From Escherichia virus TH47: 64,000 nt of DNA. The translations under genes were made by a program, and so were the position numbers. The notes under the pieces are model-generated. The model saw nothing but the letters and a program-made list of their open reading frames with translations. It had not been told where the DNA came from and did not search any database. Shown here piece after piece: positions 2 to 28,799 of this stretch (within the stretch, counting starts at the first letter, position 1; each line of letters opens with the position of its first letter). The stretch lies in sequence record MT446416.1; one strand, 5' to 3'.

Positions 2-1051
2 GAAGCTGAAGTAATTGACAATACCCTATCTGATGGTGATAAGGTTATGATATTCACAACTGATGGTGAAGATTATGTGAGATACCAAAACAATGCATGG
101 GAAACCATCTTGAGTGTATCAAAAATCAAAACTGACACCACACCAACCTTGTACACAGTAAGAAACACTGCGAACGGAACTGTAGAACTACTAGATAGTA
201 CTGGAGTTGTACTTCGTTATGATAACATCACTAAACAACAGAATGAACCAGCAATACCTCTAGCATTGAACATCGTTCGTATTAGAACCTTTGCTGATCC
301 AGAATTCTTGGTTGATGGTGTTAAGTTGTATGAAACAAATAGAAATTATGCTATCGACGCAATGAACTATGAAGTATTCTACGACACAACACTATACGGT
401 GGTTCTTATAATGATGGAATTACACCAGATGACGTTGATGTTTGGGTAGTGTCTAACGAGATATTTGAAGTTGATGGTGTTACCATTGATAACGGATATA
501 ACTTACCAATTACTGGTGCAGGTGTTCTTAGTGAGTTAGTGAGAACAAAAATGACTGATAGTGTGGAAATTAACGTGTTCGAGTATGATGTTGGTATTAT
601 TCAACCTGTACTGAATGCTGAAGGGGTATGGGAATATGCATATCCACTAGTTAGTGATACATATATTGGTGTAGTTGGTGGAACAGTAACTAACATTACT
701 GCTATCAGTGAAGAAAATGCTACTTATGTTTCACAACCAGATTCAGTTAGTCCATATAGTGTTACTAATAATGTTCTATCTGGTGCTGGTGCAAGTATGA
801 ATGATATTATTTCTCTTGGTTTTGAAAAAGTTGAAGTACGATTTGCAAATAACTTACTCCGTGGGGTAATGTATAGTGCAGAACACGACTTTAAAGAGAA
901 TGTGACATATTCATTTAATGGATTGAACTTAGGTAAAGTTAATTTACTAAAACGTTATAGTGTTAACAGTTATCCAATCGAACTATCGGTTTACTCCGAT
1001 AGTTTGCAAATAAGTGGTAATGACATTAAAAATCTATTAGAAGTTAAATAA
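2..1051 (+). CDS. hypothetical virion/tail-associated protein, 5' end truncated by window edge
   Basis: Frame open from nt 2 with no stop until TAA at 1049-1051; ORF track start at 47 is an internal Met; followed by hairpin terminator. Confidence 0.5.
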   Translation, partial: EAEVIDNTLSDGDKVMIFTTDGEDYVRYQNNAWETILSVSKIKTDTTPTLYTVRNTANGTVELLDSTGVVLRYDNITKQQNEPAIPLALNIVRIRTFADPEFLVDGVKLYETNRNYAIDAMNYEVFYDTTLYGGSYNDGITPDDVDVWVVSNEIFEVDGVTIDNGYNLPITGAGVLSELVRTKMTDSVEINVFEYDVGIIQPVLNAEGVWEYAYPLVSDTYIGVVGGTVTNITAISEENATYVSQPDSVSPYSVTNNVLSGAGASMNDIISLGFEKVEVRFANNLLRGVMYSAEHDFKENVTYSFNGLNLGKVNLLKRYSVNSYPIELSVYSDSLQISGNDIKNLLEVK

Positions 1052-1054
1052 CAA

Positions 1055-1086
1055 AAAGGAGAGCAAATGCTCTCCTTTTCTTTTTT
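1055..1086. terminator. bidirectional rho-independent terminator
   Basis: Perfect 10-bp stem aaaggagagc/gctctccttt with 4-nt loop, A-run upstream and T-run downstream; sits between convergent genes. Confidence 0.7.
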
Positions 1087-3373
1087 ACGCAATAACTTTT
1101 TCTACTGCTTTAGTTCGTTTAGGTTTGATTGCCAATTTACCATCAATCACATCAAACGTTACGTTACCACCATTAACCAGAGAACCACACAACATCTCTT
1201 TAGCTAGTGGGACACGGATGTTTTGCTCAATAGTGCGTTTCATTGGACGTGCACCCATTCCAACTTTAACACCATTTGTTGCCAACCACTCACGAGCCGC
1301 TTTGGTCAGTGAAACTTTAACTTTGCGGTCTTTGATTTGTTCATTCAAACTTCCCATGAACTTATCAATGATGCTGTCAATCGCTTCGCTGCTTAGGTCT
1401 TTGAATGTCACAATACTATCGATACGGTTGATGAATTCAGGTGGCAAGAATGCTTTAATCGCTTTATCTTGTGCTGTATCACTACCGCTCATCCCAATAC
1501 TACGCTTGGTTGAATCTGCTGCACCAAGGTTAGTCGTCATAATAACAGTTACGTTATTGAAGTAAACAGTTTTACCTTGTGAACCAGTCAAACGTCCTTC
1601 GTCCAGAACCTGTAGGAAGGTTAGTAGTACTTTACGATCAGCTTTTTCGATTTCATCGAGCAACAGTACTGCATTCGGGAACTGCTCAATCTTGTCGAGT
1701 AGCAGACCGTTACCAGAATCGTGACCAACATAGCCTGGAGGTGAACCAATCAGTTTAGCAACAGTATGTTCCTGTGAAAACTCGGACATATCGAAACGAA
1801 TCAGTTCAGAACCAGTTGCATCAGCCAGTGCTTTGGTAATTTCAGTTTTACCAGTACCAGATGGCCCAACAAACATGAATGCACCTTGAACACTTGATTT
1901 ATCACGCAGACCAGCACGAGCTACCATCACGTTATCAACCAGTTTCTGTACTGCTTCTTCTTGACCGTATACACGAGAACGGAGTGCATCTGGTAGATTA
2001 CGCATACGTTCACTTTCAGTGCAAGCAACCACGTTAATATCTAGGTTTGCGATACCTGCAACAACTTCTTGAATCAGTGCAACAGTGATGATGTTATCAT
2101 CAGTTTCACGAGAACGTACTTTCGCTGCCGCCGCATCCATTAGGTCGATTGCTTTGTCAGGGAAGTGTTTGTTCTTCAGGAACTTATCACTTAGTGTAAT
2201 AACTGCATCCATTGCTTCAGTACTGAACTCTACGTTATGGAAAGTTTCATAAGTAGATTTCAAACCATTCACAATCGCACGGGTTTCATCAATTGATGGC
2301 TCAACTACATCAATTTTCATGAAACGACGAGTTAGTGCACTATCTTTTTCGATGTTTTTACGATATTCATCGTAAGTTGTTGCACCGATTACACGAATCT
2401 CACCACGAGATAGTGCAGGTTTGAGCATGTTGCTCATATCCATAGAACCGTTGCTTGCTGAACCAGCACCAACCATAATATGGATTTCATCGATGAACAC
2501 AATAGTGTTTTCACGTTTCTTCAGTTCTTTTAGTAGGTTATCGATACGTTCTTCGAACTCACCACGGTACTTAGTACCAGCAGTCAGTGCACCTACGTTC
2601 AGAGACAGAATTTCAACATCTTTAAGATGCTCTGGTACTTCACCATCAGCGATTGCCTGTGCTAGACCATCAATGATTTGAGTTTTACCAACACCAGCTT
2701 CACCAGTCAGGATGGCATTCTTCTTAGTCTTACGGGCCAGAGTTTCAATCAGTGCAGAAAGCTCTTTCTGGCGACCAATCATTGGGTCAAGTTTACCTTC
2801 TTTTGCAAGTGCTGTTAGGTTAGTGGTGTAATCTTCTAAACCTTTTTGTTTGGACGATGGTTGCTGTTGTGCCACTTTTTTCTCCCCAGTTGGCTCATCA
2901 CTAATGCTTTGAAGGTTGATTCCGTTGTCGATTGCTTCTACGTGCTTCTGTAGAGTTCGTGCTGCTTCAGTACAAGTGATACCCTCTTCACGCAATGCTG
3001 CTTCTAGTGCAGTATTTGGGAAGGACAAACACTCAAACAGTACAAAATAAGCATCAATTGAGAAATCATCACGTTTAAGTTGCTCAATTACTGATTTCTT
3101 AGAAAGTTCCTGAACTACACGGTTCACGAGAAGTGATGTGCGGTTCGCTTCATCACCATCAGCACTTTTAGGTGCATGTGGGAATGTTGTATTCTTCAGA
3201 TATGCAATCAAACGACCGTGTAGGTTGTCTGCATCGATGTTCATATCTTCAAATACTGCTTTGATGCTATCGATTGTCAGTACTGTAGCACTTAGATGGT
3301 CAATAGTCAAGAAGGTATGACCCAGAGAAGTTGCCAGTTCGTCGCTTTTTTTGAATAATTGGGTAAGATTCAT
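1085..3373 (-). CDS. clpA: ClpA-like AAA+ unfoldase (Clp_N domain plus two AAA modules)
   Basis: N-terminal Clp_N-like repeats; D1 Walker A GEAGVGKT and Walker B FIDEIH; D2 Walker A GPSGTGKT and LLLDEIEKA; IGM tripeptide in D2 (ClpP-docking IGF/IGL-like loop); no ClpB middle domain. Start placed at ATG 3373 (GGAGAA SD 6 nt upstream) rather than GTG 3397. Confidence 0.85.
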   Translation of the reverse strand: MNLTQLFKKSDELATSLGHTFLTIDHLSATVLTIDSIKAVFEDMNIDADNLHGRLIAYLKNTTFPHAPKSADGDEANRTSLLVNRVVQELSKKSVIEQLKRDDFSIDAYFVLFECLSFPNTALEAALREEGITCTEAARTLQKHVEAIDNGINLQSISDEPTGEKKVAQQQPSSKQKGLEDYTTNLTALAKEGKLDPMIGRQKELSALIETLARKTKKNAILTGEAGVGKTQIIDGLAQAIADGEVPEHLKDVEILSLNVGALTAGTKYRGEFEERIDNLLKELKKRENTIVFIDEIHIMVGAGSASNGSMDMSNMLKPALSRGEIRVIGATTYDEYRKNIEKDSALTRRFMKIDVVEPSIDETRAIVNGLKSTYETFHNVEFSTEAMDAVITLSDKFLKNKHFPDKAIDLMDAAAAKVRSRETDDNIITVALIQEVVAGIANLDINVVACTESERMRNLPDALRSRVYGQEEAVQKLVDNVMVARAGLRDKSSVQGAFMFVGPSGTGKTEITKALADATGSELIRFDMSEFSQEHTVAKLIGSPPGYVGHDSGNGLLLDKIEQFPNAVLLLDEIEKADRKVLLTFLQVLDEGRLTGSQGKTVYFNNVTVIMTTNLGAADSTKRSIGMSGSDTAQDKAIKAFLPPEFINRIDSIVTFKDLSSEAIDSIIDKFMGSLNEQIKDRKVKVSLTKAAREWLATNGVKVGMGARPMKRTIEQNIRVPLAKEMLCGSLVNGGNVTFDVIDGKLAIKPKRTKAVEKVIA

Positions 3374-3411
3374 GTATTCTCCTAAATGAGTAGTCACTCT
3401 AATTAATAAAC

Positions 3412-3439
3412 ATTATATCACATTCTTTGCGTTTGTCAA
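3412..3439 (-). promoter_or_regulatory. sigma70-type promoter TTGACA-N16-TGaTATAAT driving the ClpA-like gene
   Basis: Minus-strand reading TTGACAaacgcaaagaatgtgaTATAAT; consensus -35 and extended -10, about 32-nt leader to the ATG. Confidence 0.6.
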
Positions 3440-3444
3440 CAAGG

Positions 3445-3450
3445 TAAATA
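3445..3450 (+). promoter_or_regulatory. T4-late-like TAAATA motif 31 nt upstream of ATG 3482
   Basis: One of eight TAAATA sites found 31-36 nt upstream of gene starts in this window. Confidence 0.3.
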
Positions 3451-3481
3451 AAGATATACCCGATTTATTTTGGAGACAAAC

Positions 3482-4978
3482 ATGACATACAGAATGTGGA
3501 AAAAAGGTAGAACCAATGATTACAAGTTCATTGACTCTGCCATAGCAGAACAATACAACATCGGTGGTGTTGACATGTGGCTTTATGCCTATGTCGGACC
3601 AAAACAAGTCGCTGATAACACTGATTTATCATATGGCGGTGATTATTATGGTTCAGATAGTACCGTTGTGTCAAGCATTGGTGATTTAATTTTTGGTGAC
3701 ACTCCAAGTCGTAACTATAATCTCGAAGCTATCACCTTAAGTTGCGTCTACCAAGTCCAAGAAGCAACTCCTGACTTGAAAATCCCAGGATTGTTCTTCA
3801 ACTTTAACACTATGGACATCACAATTCATTATAACACAATGATTCAGCGTTTGGGAAGAAAAATTATGCCAGGTGACGTAATCGAACTCCCTAACTTACG
3901 TGATTTTGATGTACTTGGTAAAGATTCTGGTTTAAATCGCTTCTATGTAGTACAAGATGGGTTTAGAACATCAGAAGGTTACTCAGTTACATGGCAACAT
4001 CACATTTACAAACTCCGTGTTAAACCTCTTACTGATTCACCAGAGTATTCAGACCTTCTAGGTAACAATAACTACCCTGATGACCCAGATGAACCAAACA
4101 ACGGCAATGGTAATACTGATGATGGCTCTTCAGAGAACAGCAGCTATGGTAATGAAATGGACATTATGAACCGTATCATTATGCAAGCTGATGATGAAGT
4201 ACCATACATTCATTTTACTAACGAACACTTGTTCGATGACAGACCAGATACCGTTGATTTGTCTAAGTATATGCTAAATGGATACGAATTACCAGAGGAA
4301 CCAGCAAATAAAATGTATTTCCTCAAGAAAACTTACCCAGTACTGAAAGAACTATCTAATGATACATGGATTTCTGTAGAAGTCAAGCGTGGAACAATCT
4401 TTCCTCGCAAACCGATGGATGGTGACTTCTTCTTTAAAGAAAACGAGGCTGATGTCACTGGCTTCTCATTGTATCAATACGATAAATCTGCCAAAAAGTG
4501 GCTAAATTGTGATGTTGAGTATACTACAGAAAGCACACCACCACAAGGGGTTGATGATTTTTATATTGAATACAAAGAACCACACATTTATCAGTACTTA
4601 AATGGTAAATGGGGAGAACCAGAAGTAACTTACGTTAATGACCCATTCACTTCTAATAGTGTTTATGGAAATATCGATTCACAACAAGATTATCGTCCTA
4701 AGATTCCTCCAGCACGAGGTACAGTTCCTGAAGGTAATATGTTCCCAAGTGATGCAGTTGATGGTGATTACTACTATCGTACCGATTATACACCAGTAAC
4801 CCTATGGGAATACAGTGCATCCAAGAATTCTTGGGTGATTTTCGATTACGGTGGTAGAAAACCGTGGGAAGGTGCAGATCTTGCTCTAACAGAATTTGTT
4901 AATAGCCCGAACCGTGTACCATTACATGATGCAGTTAAACCTAATACAGCGTATCGTATACATAAGGATTCAGAATGA
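3482..4978 (+). CDS. hypothetical protein (possible virion structural)
   Basis: 498-aa ORF; ATG 3482 with GGAG SD; ORF-track start 3470 is TTG; stop overlaps next ATG (ATGA). Confidence 0.5.
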   Translation: MTYRMWKKGRTNDYKFIDSAIAEQYNIGGVDMWLYAYVGPKQVADNTDLSYGGDYYGSDSTVVSSIGDLIFGDTPSRNYNLEAITLSCVYQVQEATPDLKIPGLFFNFNTMDITIHYNTMIQRLGRKIMPGDVIELPNLRDFDVLGKDSGLNRFYVVQDGFRTSEGYSVTWQHHIYKLRVKPLTDSPEYSDLLGNNNYPDDPDEPNNGNGNTDDGSSENSSYGNEMDIMNRIIMQADDEVPYIHFTNEHLFDDRPDTVDLSKYMLNGYELPEEPANKMYFLKKTYPVLKELSNDTWISVEVKRGTIFPRKPMDGDFFFKENEADVTGFSLYQYDKSAKKWLNCDVEYTTESTPPQGVDDFYIEYKEPHIYQYLNGKWGEPEVTYVNDPFTSNSVYGNIDSQQDYRPKIPPARGTVPEGNMFPSDAVDGDYYYRTDYTPVTLWEYSASKNSWVIFDYGGRKPWEGADLALTEFVNSPNRVPLHDAVKPNTAYRIHKDSE

Positions 4979-6318
4979 AAATAGATTATTATTATGATGG
5001 TCAATTTCGTCGAGTACTGAAACATCTTATCAGAGTGTTTGGTGAATTTCAAGTACAAAATGGTGTTGATGCTGACGGAAAACCAAAATATAAGAAAGTT
5101 CCTTGCCGCTATGCAGATATTTCACGTATGGCAGCAGCAATTATTAATGGTAACAGTGAGAACGTGCTTCCAACAGCACCAATCATGACCATTAGTGTAA
5201 ACCAACTTAAACTAGATCGCAAGTCAGTTCGTTCAAACGCAAATGAAACATTAGTTATGGGGACTAACAAGTCCCCTGGAATTAACGAATATACTAAAGA
5301 CTTAGATAAACAGTATAAAGTAACTCGTCATAACCCAGTACCTTGGACATTTACGTTTGATGTTAATATTTGGGTTACACAAACACAAACTAAAATGGAA
5401 CTATTTGAGCAAATTTCAACATTGTTTGCTCCTAGTATTCAATTACAACTCTCCGAGAACCCACTGGATTGGACATCATTGAGTGATGTGGAGTTGATTG
5501 ACTGTCAATTTACTACTCGTGGTTTCCCACAAGGAACCGATAGTGATTTGGATATAATGGTATTGACATTTGAAACCACAATTTGGTTCTCTTTGCCAGC
5601 TATTGTTGAGAAACCAAAACTTATCCAACAAATCACCACCAATATTAAAGGTGCTCGTGATGAACTTGATTTTGAAATTGGTAATTACTCGGATATCATT
5701 ACTGATGTATTCACACCAAAGAACTTATGTATTAAAGTTGATGAAATAACAAACTCTGAACTTAATATCCCAGATACTTACCAACTCACTCTTGTTAGTC
5801 AATCACTATCAGAAACATCACCAAATGGTGGGATTTATTCATGGGAAAAATACCTTAAGTACTTGGACCCAGAATATGAAGACAAGACTGTAGGTATTAA
5901 ATTCCAACAAGCTATAGAAGAGGATAACCCACTAAAAGGACATATCTCTTCATTTGGGGAAGGGGCTGATTCTAACAAGATTGTAGTTCAGCTTGATAAT
6001 AGTAATTATACTGTTGATTATACAATACATGGATTCATTAGTAAAGACTCTTTGTTATATAACGCACTACCTGAACAATATTATGTAAATAATAGCATAC
6101 ATAACATCATTTACAAAGAGACTGAAATCCCAGCGAACTATTTGTTTAAAATTACCAATGATGGAGCAGAACTTATTGAGCCATCGCGAGTACACCACTA
6201 TGTTTATAATATGGAAGATAGTGGATATTATAGATATAATGACAAATTCAAATGGCATAAGAGTATTATGTCAGTATATCGTCAGGGATATTGGAAAATA
6301 ACTTTCACTGACAAATAA
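4975..6318 (+). CDS. hypothetical protein
   Basis: 447-aa ORF translationally coupled to upstream gene; no recognisable motif. Confidence 0.5.
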   Translation: MKIDYYYDGQFRRVLKHLIRVFGEFQVQNGVDADGKPKYKKVPCRYADISRMAAAIINGNSENVLPTAPIMTISVNQLKLDRKSVRSNANETLVMGTNKSPGINEYTKDLDKQYKVTRHNPVPWTFTFDVNIWVTQTQTKMELFEQISTLFAPSIQLQLSENPLDWTSLSDVELIDCQFTTRGFPQGTDSDLDIMVLTFETTIWFSLPAIVEKPKLIQQITTNIKGARDELDFEIGNYSDIITDVFTPKNLCIKVDEITNSELNIPDTYQLTLVSQSLSETSPNGGIYSWEKYLKYLDPEYEDKTVGIKFQQAIEEDNPLKGHISSFGEGADSNKIVVQLDNSNYTVDYTIHGFISKDSLLYNALPEQYYVNNSIHNIIYKETEIPANYLFKITNDGAELIEPSRVHHYVYNMEDSGYYRYNDKFKWHKSIMSVYRQGYWKITFTDK

Positions 6319-21344: not shown

Positions 21345-21350
21345 TAAAAA

Positions 21351-21380
21351 AGGGAGACATAAGTCTCCCTTTTCTTTTAT
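21351..21380. terminator. bidirectional rho-independent terminator
   Basis: agggagac/gtctccct stem, A-run upstream, T-run downstream; between convergent genes. Confidence 0.7.
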
Positions 21381-22306
21381 ACAGCCATTGGTGCTTTGAT
21401 TGTTGGCATTGGATCGTAATTAACTAATTTGAAAGAATCCATAGTGAAATCTTCAATATCAGTAATAGTAGGATCTAACCATAATTCTGGTAATGTACGT
21501 GGTTCACGTTGGAGTTGCTCTTTTACTTGTTCAATATGGTTTTGATAGATATGGCAGTCGCCACCATTCCAAATAAATTCACCAACATCTAACCCAGTAA
21601 TTTGTGCAATCATATGAGTTAGTAGTGAGTAACTACTAATGTTAAATGGTACACCAAGGAATAAATCAGCACTGCGTTGATGAAGAATACAACTTAGTTT
21701 ACCCTGTACAACACAAAACTGCACAAAGCTATGACAGGGTGGCAAAGTCATAGCATCAAGCTCACCAACGTTCCATGCACTTAGAATGTGACGACGACCG
21801 TATGGATCAGTATTGATACCTTCAATAACTTGTTTTAGCTGGTCAGTTACACGACGCATAATAACACCATGTGAACCAGTATAATCAATAACTTTATACC
21901 CTTTATCTTTTAGTTCTTGAATTTCTTCAGTACTGGAACTGAATTTATAATCTTCCCATTCACGCCATTGTTTACCATAAACTGGGCCAAGCTCACCATC
22001 AGAATACCCAAGGCTTACACCTTGATTAAGGTAGTTGTCTGTCCAAATTGTTTTCTTTTCTACATCACGTGTCCCGTGTAAAATTTCACACAGACGACGC
22101 TCATCGTGAGAACCTTCAATAAACCATAACAATTCTGAAGTCATTGCTTTCCAAGCCAAACGTTTAGTAGTTACTGCTGGGAAACCTTCTTTTAGGTCAA
22201 AACGCATTTGTTGTCCGATTAGCTTGATAGTGCCAACACCAGTACGATCAACGCTTTCGACACCTTGATCCAGAATTCTTTGATATAGTTCTTGTAGTTG
22301 TTTCAT
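21377..22306 (-). CDS. thyA: thymidylate synthase
   Basis: DRTGVGT, LPPCHSFVQF (catalytic Cys), GKLSCILHQRSADLFLGVPFNI, C-terminal IKAPMAV; about 33-aa in-frame insertion relative to E. coli ThyA. Confidence 0.92.
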   Translation of the reverse strand: MKQLQELYQRILDQGVESVDRTGVGTIKLIGQQMRFDLKEGFPAVTTKRLAWKAMTSELLWFIEGSHDERRLCEILHGTRDVEKKTIWTDNYLNQGVSLGYSDGELGPVYGKQWREWEDYKFSSSTEEIQELKDKGYKVIDYTGSHGVIMRRVTDQLKQVIEGINTDPYGRRHILSAWNVGELDAMTLPPCHSFVQFCVVQGKLSCILHQRSADLFLGVPFNISSYSLLTHMIAQITGLDVGEFIWNGGDCHIYQNHIEQVKEQLQREPRTLPELWLDPTITDIEDFTMDSFKLVNYDPMPTIKAPMAV

Positions 22307-22904: not shown

Positions 22905-23558
22905 TTATTTTGCTTTACGTTCTGCAAATGCCTGTTTAACTTTCTCAATTGCTTTGGTTTGTGAAATTCCTTCTGGGATTTCAATATAGAAAGTTTTGCT
23001 ATCAGGTGCTACAGGTGTTGCTTGAACTTGTGGACGTAGAGATGGTTCTAAGTTGTAAGCACGTTCAAAGTGCTCTTTAGCCAACTGCTCATAACGTTGT
23101 GCATCTTTAAGTAGTTGCTCAACAATGGTAGCTTCTTCAACAGAAGTATCAACTTCTTGTGGCTTGAATGGGTTGTATTCTTTAACTTTACCATCTTCAT
23201 GTTTTTTAGTATCATTATCATTGATTGCGTTGTTTAGAACATCAAGAGAAATCTTACTGTTTCCGCCAACATGCATATCAATATCACAAGTACGTGCACG
23301 ACGCAAATGTTGTAGATTATGAAGAACATCTAGCATTTTGCGACCGTCTAGATGACCAATCTTATGCATAACTTCCCACAAATCTACATTCGATTGACCT
23401 TGATTCATTACTAAATCTGCAACAGATTGAGCATATGCTTCAGGAAGTGAGTCGCGATAAACAATGAGACAATGTTCTGGATCATCAGGGAGTGAACGCC
23501 ATACCACAAATACTCGTGAACCCGTATTACGTACTACACCAACGTGACGAATAGCCAT
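22905..23558 (-). CDS. hypothetical protein
   Basis: 217-aa ORF with AAAGGAGAA SD. Confidence 0.5.
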   Translation of the reverse strand: MAIRHVGVVRNTGSRVFVVWRSLPDDPEHCLIVYRDSLPEAYAQSVADLVMNQGQSNVDLWEVMHKIGHLDGRKMLDVLHNLQHLRRARTCDIDMHVGGNSKISLDVLNNAINDNDTKKHEDGKVKEYNPFKPQEVDTSVEEATIVEQLLKDAQRYEQLAKEHFERAYNLEPSLRPQVQATPVAPDSKTFYIEIPEGISQTKAIEKVKQAFAERKAK

Positions 23559-23560
23559 TA

Positions 23561-23791
23561 TTATTCTCCTTTATTTTGTTCAGCAGCAGCTTGTGCAGCA
23601 TCAGCTTCTTCTTGTGCTTTGATATCTTCGAGTGCAGAGTTAGCAAACTCAACAAACTTAGATACGACTGGAGCAACATCAACAAGTTCTTCGACTTTAA
23701 ATGAATTACGAGCAACAGCAGCTTCCATGATTTTAGCAGCGTTGATTAGGTCGATTAGGGTTAGTTGAATTTTTTCTGGTTCTTGTTCCAT
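23561..23791 (-). CDS. small acidic hypothetical protein
   Basis: Start placed at ATG 23791 (GGAGAG SD); ORF-track start 23890 would overlap the upstream terminator and promoter. Confidence 0.4.
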   Translation of the reverse strand: MEQEPEKIQLTLIDLINAAKIMEAAVARNSFKVEELVDVAPVVSKFVEFANSALEDIKAQEEADAAQAAAEQNKGE

Positions 23792-23825
23792 TTTAATACT
23801 CTCCATGTATGTTGTTACAAATATA

Positions 23826-23853
23826 ATTATATCACCTTTTTCCAAGCTGTCCC
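23826..23853 (-). promoter_or_regulatory. promoter GGGACA-N16-TGaTATAAT
   Basis: Minus-strand GGGACAgcttggaaaaaggtgaTATAAT; same architecture as sites at 44835 and 57615. Confidence 0.55.
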
Positions 23854-23856
23854 GCT

Positions 23857-23888
23857 GAAAAAAGTAGAGAACGGAATTTTCCGTTCTC
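23857..23888 (-). terminator. rho-independent terminator after the VWA gene
   Basis: Perfect 8-bp stem gagaacgg/ccgttctc with T-run on minus strand; immediately upstream of the promoter. Confidence 0.65.
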
Positions 23889-23900
23889 ATTATTTAGTAC

Positions 23901-25310
23901 TTAGCTACGTTGACGCTTTTTGTCAGCTTCATATTCGTAGTGTACAGTTTCGCCAAATGGTGCTTGTTTGTTAGGATTACTGTGGATAACAAACAGTGTC
24001 TTACAGTAATCAGGATCACCCCATGACTGCCACGGCTCACCATCGGTAAACATAATAAGCTGTTTAGGCTTATAGTTGTCATGCTTCATATGAACCCATA
24101 CTGCTTCAAAGTCAGTACCACCACCACCTTTCACTGGATATTCGAGAATCTTACTCTCTTCACCAGTTTTGTAATCTTTAACAGTATAAACTTCAGTATC
24201 GAACGTCATGATACGGATTTTAAATTGTTTAAACTGCTTAGTGATACCCAGTACTTCACTGATGAAATCACGGAGCATATCTTCAGAGATAGAACCGGAT
24301 GCATCTAGTGCAATTGCAATATCAATATCATCATCTGGTTTCATGCCTGGGAAGATTGGATTCCCGTAGAATGAACCAGTACTACCAAAACCAGCACCCC
24401 ATGAACGACGATTAGGACTTTGATAAGTTGCGTCAGACTTCAACCAGCTACGCAGTGTGCGGTGAAGTTTGGAACGCCAGTCAATCTTAGGTTCTTTGAA
24501 GTTGTTAATCATACGTGCGATTTCAGCAGGAGTACCACCTGCACGAGCAGCATTCATCATTGCTGTTTTGAAATCATCCATATAATCACGTTTTTGTTTA
24601 TCACTTGAACCACCTTCTTGACCTTCTTGTGGAACGTCATGCTGGTCGATTGTTGTACCTTTGCCTTTACCATCTTTGATATCACCAAAAGTACCGCGTG
24701 ATTTACCTTCACCCTCACCACTACCAGCCTGTGGATTTCCTTCACCTTCCCCGTCTTGATCCTGTTTATCTTCTTCTTCGAGAATGTTATAAATCTCTTC
24801 AGCAGTCATACCATCGTACTTTTTATCGTACAGCCATTGGCTTTGGATTTTACCAATTTTATCACGAACAAGAATCTGGTTAATTGCATAGTCAGCAGCA
24901 CGGTTATAACGCTGCGGGTCACGCATACCACGACGCAAGAAGTGGTCATATGCACAGTGAAGAATCTCATGACAGATAACTGCAATCAGGTTTTCATCAG
25001 TCAAACCTTCTGTCATTTCTTTAAGTTGTTCTTCAGTTACTTCAGGATGTTTCTCACGAATTGCTTCTTCGTATGCGGACTTTTTGGATTGGTCCTGAAT
25101 ACCCATGATGAATTCTACGTTGTAGAATAAATGCTTACCATCTACTGCCAAAGTACGACACCATGTATTGTTTGCAACTGGACGCAGACGAGAAGCCAGT
25201 ACACCAAAGAATGGGAATGTTAGCATTAAAGATGTGCGAGCTAAGATCAGACGATCTTGACATTCTTTCTGGAGAGCCGGAGTAACATCACTGAAACGTT
25301 TATCTGACAT
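23901..25310 (-). CDS. VWA-domain protein with N-terminal HExxH metallopeptidase-like domain
   Basis: HEILH motif in N-terminal half; MIDAS-like DASGS in C-terminal VWA region; GAGGAAA SD. Confidence 0.75.
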   Translation of the reverse strand: MSDKRFSDVTPALQKECQDRLILARTSLMLTFPFFGVLASRLRPVANNTWCRTLAVDGKHLFYNVEFIMGIQDQSKKSAYEEAIREKHPEVTEEQLKEMTEGLTDENLIAVICHEILHCAYDHFLRRGMRDPQRYNRAADYAINQILVRDKIGKIQSQWLYDKKYDGMTAEEIYNILEEEDKQDQDGEGEGNPQAGSGEGEGKSRGTFGDIKDGKGKGTTIDQHDVPQEGQEGGSSDKQKRDYMDDFKTAMMNAARAGGTPAEIARMINNFKEPKIDWRSKLHRTLRSWLKSDATYQSPNRRSWGAGFGSTGSFYGNPIFPGMKPDDDIDIAIALDASGSISEDMLRDFISEVLGITKQFKQFKIRIMTFDTEVYTVKDYKTGEESKILEYPVKGGGGTDFEAVWVHMKHDNYKPKQLIMFTDGEPWQSWGDPDYCKTLFVIHSNPNKQAPFGETVHYEYEADKKRQRS

Positions 25311-25342
25311 TTGTATTTCCTCGTTTAGTTAAGATAAAAGAA

Positions 25343-25360
25343 GGATACCATGTGGTATCC
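25343..25360 (-). promoter_or_regulatory. intercistronic hairpin (possible attenuator) between ATPase and VWA genes
   Basis: Palindrome ggatacca/tggtatcc followed on the minus strand by tcttttat. Confidence 0.35.
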
Positions 25361-25385
25361 TCCTTGTCAACACTCTTTTTAATTA

Positions 25386-26714
25386 TTAACCAAGAGAGCG
25401 TGCTTTACGTACTAGGTCAGAGTACTTCATAACGAAGTCTTTAAACGCTGGTACATCTTTAATCGTAATCGCTACTTTATGAAGCGTGATGGTACGAATC
25501 GCCAGTACTGCCAGTTCTGCTTGAGTTGCAGAGAAGTTATGGTCTAGGAAGGTGATGAAGTTGTTGCACAGCTTACCCCAATCTTCCACTGGTAGACGTT
25601 GTTCTTGCTTCTCATTGTAGAGGTCGATAATTTTGTAAACCAGATTCAGAGTGATGAAGTAGTTCGCGGAAATATCAAGCGAAGCATCAATCTCTTTAAT
25701 CTCACCCTGTAGGATGGACATGGTATCTGGTAGTTTAGCTACGTTATCAACATACTCGATGTATTCAGTTGCTACGCCTTCACCAACACGACCTGCAATC
25801 ATCGCACGGAACACTTCTTTATCAATGTTCTTAACTTTCTTCAGATCTTCGTAGCGTGCTACTGCTTCCCATGAACGTGGAGAAGTACCACCACAGTGAG
25901 AAGGATCTTGTGGGCTAAGGGTGTTGAAGTGTTTAGCACCAGTGTTGTTGATGAACGCAACAGTTGCTGGGTTCAAACGCTTGCCAATCGCATAATCGTT
26001 AATCCAATCTTGATGATAAGGAATCATTTCGATGTGGGTCATACGGTCACGCAGTGGTGTAGCTAGAGAGAACGTTACACCGCCATCAGTTTCACGGTTA
26101 CCTGCTGCGAGAATCAGTGCAGTCTTAGGTAGCTTCATCTCACCAACACAACGGTCGAGGATTAGCTGGTAAGACGCTGCCTGTACAATCGGCATTGCAG
26201 AGTTGATTTCGTCAAACAGGATAACACCTTTCCAATCATCGGGCAATTTCAGTACTTTTGGTGCTGCCCACACAACTGCTGTTTCAGCGATGTAATCTTG
26301 TGCACTAGCCAGTTCAGATTCAATCAGTTGCTTACCATCCATATCAAGGAACACTTTCTCTGGAACTGGAATACCACGAAGGTCACTTGGTTCAATCTGA
26401 GACAAACGGAAATCGATAAAGTTAGTGTCTTGGTCGATTAGTTTGGCTTCAAACGCTGCCAGTTCACGGCGAAGTTGATCGGCATTTTCAGTATCAGCTT
26501 CGATTTGTTGTTTCATGAACTCAATTTTTGCCACGTTATCTTTACGCAGTGGGTAGTTCTCATCAGCGTATTGACGTGCGATAGCAGATTTACCGATACC
26601 AGGGCTACCCCAAATCATCAGGCTATCTTGAATCATGTCAGCCAGTGCCATTGCTTCTTTAGCTTTCTTAGGAGTCAGTTTTACGTTCAGGATATCGTTG
26701 TTTTGAGTAGACAT
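25386..26714 (-). CDS. MoxR/CbbQ-like AAA+ ATPase
   Basis: Walker A GSPGIGKS, Walker B ILFDEIN, coiled-coil insertion; AAAGGAAAA SD. Confidence 0.75.
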   Translation of the reverse strand: MSTQNNDILNVKLTPKKAKEAMALADMIQDSLMIWGSPGIGKSAIARQYADENYPLRKDNVAKIEFMKQQIEADTENADQLRRELAAFEAKLIDQDTNFIDFRLSQIEPSDLRGIPVPEKVFLDMDGKQLIESELASAQDYIAETAVVWAAPKVLKLPDDWKGVILFDEINSAMPIVQAASYQLILDRCVGEMKLPKTALILAAGNRETDGGVTFSLATPLRDRMTHIEMIPYHQDWINDYAIGKRLNPATVAFINNTGAKHFNTLSPQDPSHCGGTSPRSWEAVARYEDLKKVKNIDKEVFRAMIAGRVGEGVATEYIEYVDNVAKLPDTMSILQGEIKEIDASLDISANYFITLNLVYKIIDLYNEKQEQRLPVEDWGKLCNNFITFLDHNFSATQAELAVLAIRTITLHKVAITIKDVPAFKDFVMKYSDLVRKARSLG

Positions 26715-26754
26715 GTATATTTTCCTTTTGTTGGATAAAATCGTTTAGGTTTCT

Positions 26755-26783
26755 ATTATAGCCAATCCGTGGGCAAAAGTAAA
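26755..26783 (-). promoter_or_regulatory. proximal promoter P3 (TTTACT-N17-TATAAT)
   Basis: Minus-strand TTTACTtttgcccacggattggcTATAAT about 40 nt upstream of the ATPase ATG. Confidence 0.4.
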
Positions 26784-26823
26784 GGAACTGTGTTAAAAGA
26801 ATTTTTAACTTATCAGTTCCTTT
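26781..26823 (-). promoter_or_regulatory. hairpin (possible attenuator/terminator) between P2 and P3
   Basis: Perfect 10-bp inverted repeat aaaggaactg/cagttccttt with 23-nt loop, followed on minus strand by acttttg. Confidence 0.4.
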
Positions 26824-26885
26824 GTTACTTCATGAATCATCCGTGTATTTAAAAAGGCATTTCTCTTTGCCGTCTTGATGTGGTC

Positions 26886-26913
26886 ATTATATCACATCGT
26901 TCAGGCTTGTCAA
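26886..26913 (-). promoter_or_regulatory. promoter P2 (TTGACA-N16-TGaTATAAT) with A-rich UP element
   Basis: Minus-strand aaaaaaaagttgTTGACAagcctgaacgatgtgaTATAAT; part of a ~70-bp direct repeat. Confidence 0.65.
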
Positions 26914-26979
26914 CAACTTTTTTTTATTTCTTTTTCAATCTCACATCTTGTGATTTTGAAAACTTGCTTCGTGGTGGTC

Positions 26980-27007
26980 ATTATATCACATCATTCGGCG
27001 TTGTCAA
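26980..27007 (-). promoter_or_regulatory. promoter P1 (TTGACA-N16-TGaTATAAT) with A-rich UP element
   Basis: Minus-strand aaaaaaaaagatgTTGACAacgccgaatgatgtgaTATAAT; second copy of the repeat. Confidence 0.65.
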
Positions 27008-27034
27008 CATCTTTTTTTTTCTTTATTTTCGAAG

Positions 27035-27412
27035 CTACATGTGCATCGAAATTAACATTCTAAAATCATCACCACACAATGTTAACTCTGTAACTATCAT
27101 TGCGTCAGAGAGGTATATGTACTGCCCTTCAACATAGTAGGGTGAAGTACATATCCTATCAAGCGATGTAAAGATTATAGAACTTTTGAACTCTCTTTGC
27201 AAGGGGATTTTTGTAAATTCGTAAAGAATGTTTTCTTTACAAATTGTATATCCAAACTTGCTAAGTCTTAAACCACCGCCAGTTCTGAAATTTTCAAAAA
27301 TTGACATCAGAAGCATACGGTCTGTTAATTCAGCGTCTGATCCATGTACTTCTCTAACTTTTAAAAGTACATCGTTTTGAAATTCAGTACTGTTGTGTGG
27401 TTCAGGGATCAT
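27035..27412 (-). CDS. hypothetical protein
   Basis: 125-aa ORF, last gene of a long minus-strand operon. Confidence 0.45.
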   Translation of the reverse strand: MIPEPHNSTEFQNDVLLKVREVHGSDAELTDRMLLMSIFENFRTGGGLRLSKFGYTICKENILYEFTKIPLQREFKSSIIFTSLDRICTSPYYVEGQYIYLSDAMIVTELTLCGDDFRMLISMHM

Positions 27413-27415
27413 ATA

Positions 27416-27808
27416 TTACATCCCCACAAAACCCTGTCTTGCTGCATATGAAGGAGCATCTTTAACTTTATAGTCTTGGACACCATCTTTACCAATTTTC
27501 GGACCCATATCTTTGGTTCCGAAGCAGCAATCAGTGGATTCATCAACTTCTTCAGTACTTTCATCATTATATCGAACATCCGATAAAATGTCACACGCTT
27601 TTTGAAGCTTTTCTACGATTTCTTTTTGATCTTCACCTGATTTAACCTTATCCACAATGTGGATAAGGCATTCGGTGATATCTTTAAGTAAATCGGTGGC
27701 TACAGCATCAGAAGGAGTCTCAACTGCAAAACTTTCTTCTTCAGTAGATTCTTCACTAGAAGTGATTTCATCTAATGCTTCAACCAATTCACGATAATTA
27801 TATCCCAT
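27416..27808 (-). CDS. acidic hypothetical protein
   Basis: 130-aa ORF with AGGGGA SD. Confidence 0.45.
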   Translation of the reverse strand: MGYNYRELVEALDEITSSEESTEEESFAVETPSDAVATDLLKDITECLIHIVDKVKSGEDQKEIVEKLQKACDILSDVRYNDESTEEVDESTDCCFGTKDMGPKIGKDGVQDYKVKDAPSYAARQGFVGM

Positions 27809-27809
27809 C

Positions 27810-28799
27810 TTATTTGTCCCCTAGAAATTGTTGATATTTCTTCTGGAGACTTTCGAAAATGTCTTCGACTTCTTCATCGCTTTCATCTTCTAGTTCTTCG
27901 TTACCTTCCACGGACTCATCACTCTCATTAACATTGAGTGGGTTGTCACCTAGAGCAGTACCTGGAAACTTAGGTTCAAATTTGTGAACACGGTTCTCGT
28001 TACCGTCATTGTCATAGTACTCTGGTTCAGGACGATTGTCAACATCTTCATCAACGACACGTCTCCAGTAGAACTTGTTACCCTTGGTAATAACAACAAA
28101 GTGGTCACCTTCTACACCATTAGTTTTAGCTTGACCGTCACGAACGGCATCAGCTTCAGTGTTGTAAGGTCCAAAATCAGTACTGTCACCTTGTTCTTCA
28201 TCTTCAGAGATGGTTAGGTCTGGTAGGAAAGTGTTTTCTTCAACTTTAACTTCAGTATCTGGGTTACCTTCTACTGAATATTCATCTTCTGGTTCGTCTT
28301 GAAGACCAGCTAGAGATAGCATACGACTGAAATCGAATTCTTCTTCGATGATTTCTTCTTCTTCCTCTTCTTCAACTGATTCTAGTTGAGGTTGACCGGA
28401 AAGATCTAAAGAAAACTCTTCTTCATCTGCAACCCCAGGCTCTTCGAACTCTGCATCCATACTTACTTCTTCAGAATCACCACCAAAATCACCAGCTTCA
28501 GCAGATAGTGAGTCAGCAGCTACTTCCAATGGGTCTTCAACTGGTGCATCAATCGCACCATCCATTGCACCACCAACTTCTTCTTCAGCACCAGCACCAA
28601 TGGAATCCATGTCGAGTGGAGCGATTGGTGGTAGAGAAGGGGTCATAGACCCCATAGAAGGAACTGGAGCAGCAACAGGAGAAGCTTGACGCTCTGCTTG
28701 ACCAGCTAATGCAAGCATACGAGATAGTGTTTCTAGATCTTCAGATTCTAGACCTGCGATATCGATTTTAACTTGTGCTTCATTAATTTTTTTAGCCAT
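27810..28799 (-). CDS. highly acidic (Glu/Asp-rich) protein
   Basis: 329-aa ORF, strongly acidic low-complexity C-terminal half. Confidence 0.5.
   Translation of the reverse strand: MAKKINEAQVKIDIAGLESEDLETLSRMLALAGQAERQASPVAAPVPSMGSMTPSLPPIAPLDMDSIGAGAEEEVGGAMDGAIDAPVEDPLEVAADSLSAEAGDFGGDSEEVSMDAEFEEPGVADEEEFSLDLSGQPQLESVEEEEEEEIIEEEFDFSRMLSLAGLQDEPEDEYSVEGNPDTEVKVEENTFLPDLTISEDEEQGDSTDFGPYNTEADAVRDGQAKTNGVEGDHFVVITKGNKFYWRRVVDEDVDNRPEPEYYDNDGNENRVHKFEPKFPGTALGDNPLNVNESDESVEGNEELEDESDEEVEDIFESLQKKYQQFLGDK

Follow-up and report, generated by a model that had tools for sequence, protein, structure and literature searches.

The stretch of DNA analysed here (64,000 nucleotides (nt) of Escherichia virus TH47, sequence record MT446416.1; hereafter the window) comes from an Asteriusvirus jumbo coliphage. 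Its DNA is 99% identical to that of Escherichia phages Turkey3, Ecwhy_1, vB_Ec-M-J and others and 86% identical to that of 121Q, PBECO4, phAPEC6 and G17; Ecwhy_1 and the 86%-identity relatives are classed as Asteriusvirus, jumbo myoviruses of approximately 350 kb, and the window phage belongs to the 121Q/RaK2/GAP32/PA5oct assemblage. At positions 23901-26714, a preliminary description of the window had recognized a two-gene cassette for a MoxR-like AAA+ ATPase and a VWA protein with an HExxH metallopeptidase-like motif. Both open reading frames (ORFs) lie there, adjacent and with the ATPase gene first, in what is a self-contained bicistronic operon (Table 1); we refer to the VWA protein as the adaptor. 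The preliminary description had overlooked that the genes run on the minus strand, that a leader hairpin and a further promoter-like site (P3) precede the ATPase gene, and that a terminator and then a promoter follow the VWA gene.

Table 1 Genes and transcription signals at the ATPase–VWA locus of the window
Feature	Position	Strand	Description
MoxR-class AAA+ ATPase	25386-26714	minus	442 amino acids (aa), 49.6 kDa; counterpart of N4 gp24, phAPEC6 gp265c and 121Q gp563
Adaptor/effector, zincin-like HExxH and VWA/metal ion-dependent adhesion site (MIDAS)	23901-25310	minus	469 aa, 53.5 kDa; counterpart of N4 gp25
Promoter P1	27007-26980	minus	TTGACA-16-TATAAT with TG extension, 12/12 sigma-70 consensus; kept in G17 and Klebsiella phage RCIP0023
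Promoter P2	26913-26886	minus	Second perfect sigma-70 copy; present in G17, absent from RCIP0023
Leader hairpin	26831-26775	minus	AAAGGAACUG...CAGUUCCUUU, inner GUUAAAA/UUUUAAC stem, then ACUUUUG; between P1/P2 and the ATPase start
Promoter-like site P3	26783-26755	minus	TTTACT-17-TATAAT, 10/12; overlaps the 3′ arm of the leader hairpin
Intercistronic hairpin	25365-25338	minus	12-bp stem, 4-nt loop, then U-tract UUUUAUCUU
Terminator hairpin	23888-23867	.	9-bp stem, then UACUUUUUUC; directly after the VWA stop codon
Extended -10 promoter-like site	23853-23826	minus	GGGACA-16-TATAAT with TG; restarts transcription for downstream genes
Syntenic upstream gene	27035-27412	minus	125 aa, PHROG 15638
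Syntenic downstream gene	23561-23806	minus	81 aa, PHROG 13789
Syntenic downstream gene	22905-23558	minus	217 aa, PHROG 15894

The motifs on which the cassette had first been recognized (GSPGIGKS and ILFDEIN in the ATPase, HEILH and DASGS in the adaptor) are all present at the expected residues, and the Pfam and PHROG matches put the homology well past chance. Pfam, invariant residues and folds support the pairing of a MoxR-class ATPase with a VWA/HExxH protein. In the ATPase, GSPGIGKS (Walker A) spans residues 36-43 (nt 26586-26609) and ILFDEIN residues 165-171 (nt 26202-26222), its first five residues (165-169) forming Walker B. G36, G39, K42, S43, D168 and E169 are invariant in 49 homologues, as are N206 (in AAGNRE), R224 and R280, whose positions in the structural model suggest the roles of sensor-1 asparagine, arginine finger and sensor-2 arginine, respectively. 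An AlphaFold2 (AF2) model (predicted local distance difference test (pLDDT) score of 86) predicts two strands (115-124 and 141-150) that come after beta2 and before Walker B, with a conserved D111-R113-G114-P116 motif at the base of this predicted helix-2 insert, and a predicted short hairpin (188-193) before beta4, in the pre-sensor-1 position. On this prediction the ATPase would have both the helix-2 beta-hairpin insert and the pre-sensor-1 hairpin of the MoxR class, and the fold of the model resembles CbbQ, NorQ, dynein AAA and midasin. The protein falls in PHROG 1297 (E 6e-105), and 263 homologues were found.

The adaptor combines two domains. Its HEILH motif (residues 114-118, nt 24957-24971) is part of HEILHCAYDH (114-123) and lies in the N-terminal region matched by Pfam DUF2201_N, the 'putative metallopeptidase domain' (PF13203; 4e-36, 125 bits against a cutoff of 23.2). 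DASGS (336-340, nt 24291-24305) opens a complete MIDAS motif DxSxS...T...D (D336, S338, S340, T399 and D423) in the VWA fold, where the C-terminal region matches DUF2201, the 'VWA-like domain' (PF09967; 1e-21, 77.8 bits against 26.4). The protein belongs to PHROG 1314 (E 2e-127). H114, E115, H118, D140 and the five MIDAS residues are invariant in 48 homologues of 43-90% identity, at least 90% of which also keep H123. In comparison with the N4-like, rV5-like, PVP-SE1 and PA5oct proteins (31-45% identity), H114, E115, H118, H123, D140 and the MIDAS residues are all invariant, and the zincin residues, including the third ligand, are so across six phage lineages. Because the catalytic residues remain invariant down to approximately 31% identity, both proteins are probably active. 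In the AF2 model of the adaptor (pLDDT 78), residues ~10-190 form a helical domain with a three-stranded sheet that carries the HExxH helix; a disordered acidic/Gly-rich linker (~190-235), a helical segment and a second disordered linker (~292-325) then lead to a compact VWA domain (329-457) that, in a structure search, resembles the VWA domains of NorD, midasin and BchD. Homologues of the VWA protein number 2,795, and 14,764 representatives of the family (clusters at 50% identity) match at E<=1e-3. An NCBIfam scan returned nothing meaningful for the pair, and sequence searches of the ATPase, the adaptor, an alignment profile and two flanking proteins against the Protein Data Bank gave only chance-level or generic integrin I-domain matches.

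The same two domain architectures, in the same ATPase-then-VWA order, make up gp24 and gp25 of phage N4. Searches with tblastn connected the window to N4 gp24 (2e-20) and to gp25 of EC1-UPM (4e-19), and all catalytic and MIDAS residues are common to the two pairs, although identity is only ~27-31%; the annotators of phAPEC6 had already written 'MoxR ATPase' and 'N4 gp25-like protein'. The differences lie in added segments and in expression. The jumbo-phage ATPase exceeds that of N4 by ~90 aa; a helical segment of ~45 aa follows its Walker A helix, and its beta-hairpin insert is longer. The acidic linker of the window adaptor is likewise longer than that of gp25. The N4 genes are expressed as middle genes, whereas the window genes stand behind promoters of the host sigma-70 type. 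N4 gp24 and gp25, known as middle transcripts, are also among the 14 core genes of N4-like phages (PMC4193335).

The novelty implied by the preliminary description does not hold. Iyer, Anantharaman, Krishnan, Burroughs and Aravind reported that 'group 2.2' jumbo phages encode a MoxR ATPase together with a vWA co-chaperone that bears a metallopeptidase at its N-terminus, and proposed, without experiments, a role in virion assembly with peptidolytic processing (2021, PMC7824862). The window pair is the pair of that study, with nothing essential different, and therefore is already known rather than a new kind of system. That study does not cover how the pair relates to N4 gp24/25, which syntenic genes flank it, or how its promoters, hairpins and attenuator are arranged. 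Among bacterial systems, NorQ/NorD, CbbQ/CbbO and RavA/ViaA likewise set a MoxR-class ATPase beside a VWA/MIDAS partner. NorQ and NorD assemble with NorQ6:NorD1 stoichiometry (PMC9976466), and NorQ remodels the linker of NorD (PMC9976466, PMC13036017); this is the architecture to be expected for the window pair. The window pair departs from these bacterial couples in the zincin peptidase domain of its adaptor and in the lack of a metal-enzyme client gene in the vicinity; its ATPase is also extended by ~170 aa of helical C-terminal sequence and contains lineage-specific insertions. A viral couple, p618 (MoxR) and p892 (VWA) of Acidianus two-tailed virus, is implicated in virion morphogenesis as tail-development chaperones (PMC7824862, PMC7159879); set beside the window pair by description only, it differs in coming from an archaeal virus and in having no peptidase domain. 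The vWA-MoxR ternary conflict systems share the MoxR and vWA core, sometimes with peptidase effectors and rarely with a metallopeptidase (Kaur, Burroughs, Iyer and Aravind 2020, PMC7159879). In contrast to these systems, the window pair lies in a lytic phage with no VMAP, FtsH or beta-propeller third component; the flanking genes encode small function-unassigned proteins and virion proteins, and PADLOC gave no match below E 0.02 for the pair.

The two genes travel together. Searches with tblastn matched 730 phage records for the VWA protein and 810 for the ATPase, phage N4 itself being among the matches, with nearly equal counts by genus (VWA/ATPase: Escherichia 215/214, Pseudomonas 110/112, Vibrio 98/95) and identical counts in Pectobacterium, Cronobacter, Achromobacter and Campylobacter; PhiKZ lacks the pair. 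In N4 and other N4-like phages the genes are adjacent, and in rV5-like and PVP-SE1-like phages they lie a few kb apart. Adjacency is not obligatory, because a putative homing endonuclease gene of 1.5 kb, together with three small genes, stands between them in PA5oct (locus 990-6176). A scan of one genome per species returned 24 loci with the VWA gene of the pair, and an ATPase homologue lay upstream on the same strand in all 21 bacterial or metagenome-assembled genome (MAG) loci with enough flanking DNA, in some cases across one to five intervening small ORFs. The settings included marine contigs resembling phage, among them one of 335 kb; isolates of alphaproteobacteria, where DUF3150, DNA ligase, a DUF4942 methyltransferase and a DnaN-like clamp accompany the pair; and what look like chromosomal locations in Saccharibacteria and in a deltaproteobacterium.

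Three small genes that flank the pair in the window (125, 81 and 217 aa) keep their relative positions in distant marine jumbo-phage-like contigs at 36-39% identity. Homologues of the 125-aa gene lie there directly upstream of the ATPase gene (E 1e-6 to 6e-5), and those of the 81-aa and 217-aa genes, with E values as low as 5e-24, lie downstream of the pair there and also close to it in PA5oct. This conserved order suggests that the pair and the three flanking genes form a larger conserved module. The 335-kb contig (PBPT01000016.1, binned as Neomarinimicrobiota) encodes a 5'-3' exonuclease, an Mtd_N tail-fibre protein and the pair with its syntenic neighbours; its size and these genes suggest that the genome of a jumbo phage was wrongly assigned to a bacterial MAG. 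Separately, in four alphaproteobacterial isolates (L016, L018, L019 and L022) the pair belongs to a conserved block that also holds the DUF3150, DNA ligase, DnaN-like sliding clamp and DUF4942 methyltransferase genes. Two or three small ORFs separate the ATPase and VWA genes there, and the block resembles a mobile element with a replication module.

The preliminary description placed the cassette behind the strongest promoter array of the window, and the array is real: P1 and P2 are two of three perfect sigma-70 matches in 64 kb, where 0.26 would be expected by chance, and they sit in a tandem direct repeat (57-nt repeat, 94-nt spacing). The third perfect promoter (3412-3439, minus strand) shares the ATGTGATATAATG core with P1 and P2 and lies ~15 nt upstream of a GTG-start ORF of 770 aa (1085-3397), divergent from the gene on the plus strand at 3470. 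Extended -10 sites of a related kind are found at 39208-39221 and 23824-23837. Promoters of the T4 late type (TATAAATA) are not in use here, the octamer being found once in the 64 kb; with 8.5 expected from shuffles, it is markedly depleted in the window.

Between the two genes, the hairpin previously placed at 25343-25360 is real, that span being the core of the 12-bp stem (dG -17.5 kcal/mol, z -4.0). It is kept in G17 and, with a compensatory G:C to T:A change, in RCIP0023 (Alcyoneusvirus), and in the same position the Pectobacterium phage CBB (Mimasvirus; 59% identity at the protein level) carries a GC-rich hairpin of another sequence, also with a U-tract, so that a terminator-like hairpin separates the ATPase and VWA genes in three genera (Asteriusvirus, Alcyoneusvirus and Mimasvirus). 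It is likely a partial terminator that lowers expression of the adaptor relative to the ATPase. The terminator hairpin after the VWA stop codon (dG -14.2, z -5.1) is annotated as such at the same place in G17. This terminator and the new promoter behind it set the two genes apart as an insulated unit of two cistrons, with an attenuator-like element inside. The layout should give more ATPase than adaptor and fits a 6:1 ratio as in NorQ/NorD (PMC9976466). The earlier suggestion that the hairpin tunes the ratio of the two proteins is accordingly plausible, its position being kept in three genera, its stem showing a compensatory change and the NorQ6:NorD1 stoichiometry serving as precedent.

Strong early expression, the other regulatory proposal of the preliminary description, meets a competing account in the leader. 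The leader hairpin folds with a z score of -3.8 (26770-26880) and is kept in G17, whose annotation calls it a terminator; RCIP0023 carries a matching one-base deletion in each arm. At the equivalent position in CBB, a canonical terminator hairpin, unrelated in sequence to the leader hairpin of the window, comes after an extended -10 promoter. P3 is nearly invariant across the window, G17 and RCIP0023. The leader hairpin resembles a terminator or an attenuator, and because it and P3 precede the ATPase start, the strong promoters may mainly yield a short leader RNA. It is a serious possibility, though one to which we give less than even weight, that P1 and P2 chiefly make leader RNAs of ~100 and ~195 nt ending at this hairpin; with the same reserve, the ATPase-VWA message could come mostly from the weaker P3 together with read-through of the hairpin, or from transcripts of the upstream structural genes. 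The conserved hairpin with its terminator annotation in G17, the equivalent arrangement in CBB and the near-invariance of P3 point this way, as do the lack of a terminator in searches between the upstream gene and P1 and the highly expressed non-coding RNAs made by PA5oct. Set against this, the full stem in the window takes up part of the U-tract, so termination at the leader hairpin may be weak, and an Rfam scan of 23500-27500 found nothing above chance.

Comparison with other phages bears on timing in the same way. N4 homologues are middle genes, and the PA5oct homologues fall outside the block defined as early in the PA5oct paper; that phage relies on host RNA polymerase throughout infection and its early genes lie elsewhere. 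A literature search for Asteriusvirus transcriptomics found nothing relevant. P1 and P2 do exist as described, but with the leader hairpin and P3 before the ATPase gene, with these homologues in view and with the ATPase detected in purified virions of two relatives, early expression is unproven, only partly supported and somewhat contradicted.

By analogy with NorQ/NorD and CbbQ/CbbO, the pair would work as follows. An ATPase hexamer would bind roughly one adaptor; a target protein would be captured by an acidic residue at the MIDAS site of the adaptor; hydrolysis of ATP would drive remodelling of the flexible adaptor linkers, the target or both; and the HExxH(x4)H zincin domain would then cleave the target. 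Taken whole, the explanation that we favour, by a little more than an even chance, is that the cassette encodes a MoxR ATPase and its cognate VWA adaptor fused to an active zincin peptidase, with N4 gp24/gp25 as counterparts. The choice of target is the weakest step of the proposed mechanism. Our tentative preference, held short of even confidence, is for processing or assembly of virion-associated proteins, for example the very acidic structural proteins encoded upstream; a host protein is the next most likely target.

The preference for a virion target follows from the surroundings of the pair. It stands at the end of a long minus-strand block holding structural genes: three genes of virion-structural PHROGs (27416-27808, 27810-28799 and 28822-30366) lie directly upstream, two of their three products being very acidic, and tail sheath, neck and related genes lie further upstream. 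The acidic pair (27416-28799, minus strand) encodes proteins with isoelectric points of 4.2 and 4.05 and 25-28% Asp+Glu, the smaller of which weakly matches phiKZ-type internal head proteins; these are candidate MIDAS ligands or substrates. Synteny with these acidic proteins, found again with the upstream structural genes of CBB, favours a virion target, as do the tail-protein annotations of the genes flanking the VWA gene of PVP-SE1, the proposal in PMC7824862 and detections by mass spectrometry (MS). The ATPase orthologue was identified in CsCl-purified phAPEC6 virions (6 peptides, 19% coverage), where gp262c, the orthologue of the 217-aa gene, gave 1 peptide, and the PA5oct ATPase is flagged for detection by electrospray ionization tandem MS (ESI-MS/MS). 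These detections go part of the way towards the late expression and virion incorporation that the preliminary description had named as counting against its reading. The annotations of CBB and 121Q give the ATPase no structural label.

Several points weigh against the favoured explanation. Complex formation, proteolysis and target are all things that we infer. The window ATPase passes only the generic Pfam AAA model (21.3 against a cutoff of 21.2), falls below threshold for AAA_3 (16.8 against 27) and has no match to AAA_5; having missed these thresholds itself, it owes its MoxR membership to transitive homology and fold. Homologues do clear the threshold (PA5oct gp335 scores 24 against 22 for AAA_5), and those at 31-34% identity carry PF07728/PF07726. 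The peptidase assignment draws on Pfam, the motif and weak matches to PhageMetallopep and M48, and two structure searches gave no fold-level match for the N-terminal domain of the adaptor, because the VWA domain dominated both. As for a virion target, the pair is kept in podoviruses and myoviruses with unrelated virions, occurs also in non-phage chromosomal contexts and lies in N4 among middle/replication-type genes. The neighbours of the ATPase in CBB and 121Q bear the structural label that it lacks, and the virion MS of phAPEC6 also contained thymidylate synthase, so that carry-over of abundant proteins is possible. Literature searches found no functional paper on any family member; those on N4 gp24/25 gave comparative genomics only.

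Some of the same observations would suit a host-directed machine, in which a complex made early or mid-infection degrades or remodels a host protein. We regard this as rather unlikely. On such a reading the host protein could act in defence, replication, transcription or the envelope and be common to the Gram-negative hosts of these phages, and the pair would serve take-over or anti-defence. The consensus sigma-70 promoters, the position of the N4 middle genes beside replication and nucleotide-metabolism genes, the spread of the pair over unrelated virion architectures (N4-like, rV5-like and jumbo) and the cellular and mobile-element homologues beside DNA ligase, sliding clamp and DUF3150 are in line with a host target. 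They are countered by the synteny with structural genes in the jumbo clade, by the ATPase in two virion proteomes, by the lack of a match to PADLOC defence families or of known anti-defence homology, and by strict core-gene conservation, which is unusual for anti-defence genes, normally patchy. A bolder combination, to which we give similarly low credence, would join an ATP-driven, MIDAS-targeted protease acting on a common Gram-negative host protein for general take-over or anti-defence with, separately, an abundant early small RNA from P1/P2 that would stop at the leader hairpin, the hairpin serving as a regulated attenuator of the operon.

An improbable alternative is a metal-cofactor insertase acting without proteolysis, as in NorQD, CoxDE, CobST and BchID, in which HExxH would hold the metal and the client would be a phage or host enzyme. 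Most characterized MoxR/VWA pairs do perform metal insertion (PMC7159879, PMC13036017), and neighbours from nucleotide metabolism recur: ThyA in the window, dCTP deaminase in N4-like phages, and thymidylate kinase, HD hydrolase and MazG in PVP-SE1. These neighbouring enzymes vary between lineages, however, and the ATPase match to Mg_chelatase, at 16.2 bits against 20.3, is weak and below threshold. The invariance of the HExxH glutamate, E115, is expected for catalysis and not for metal storage, and makes a metal-insertion role less likely. A chelatase of the BchI/BchD or CobS/CobT kind was rejected, no family-level match to the Mg_chelatase, CobS or CobT models being found. That the second gene encodes an HNH endonuclease, as many GenBank records and PHROG 1314 have it, we consider almost certainly wrong: DUF2201_N and DUF2201 account for the whole adaptor, Pfam and NCBIfam contain no HNH or His-Me finger match for it, and its model is a zincin-like domain with a VWA fold; because the HNH domain is absent and the domain content fits a peptidase with VWA, the label is a propagated annotation error. 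Other records call the adaptor 'anti-sigma factor', 'membrane protein' or 'dCTP deaminase'.

The favoured explanation, a MoxR ATPase working with a VWA-zincin adaptor, concerns one of the more widespread function-unassigned phage gene pairs, part of the Schitoviridae core and present in rV5-like and RaK2/121Q-like jumbo phages. The identity of its substrate would explain a conserved infection or assembly step in many therapeutic-candidate phages and would give the first MoxR/VWA machine coupled to a protease. Of practical value are the correction of the 'HNH endonuclease' label, the tie between the jumbo-phage pair and N4 gp24/25 and the map of the operon control elements; the remaining interest lies in the substrate and in the role of the leader element.

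Downstream of the pair, on the same strand, two small function-unassigned genes are followed by a DprA/SLOG-like gene and thymidylate synthase. The thyA gene is intact in the window (21377-22306, minus strand), whereas in Klebsiella phage RCIP0023 (8229-10186 of the locus) the thymidylate synthase gene is split by an insertion with an 'intron-associated endonuclease'. Beyond thyA, a bidirectional terminator (21346-21375), formed by a 13-bp hairpin with T-runs on both strands, lies between convergent genes, namely thymidylate synthase on the minus strand and a 654-aa tail-fibre-like gene on the plus strand.

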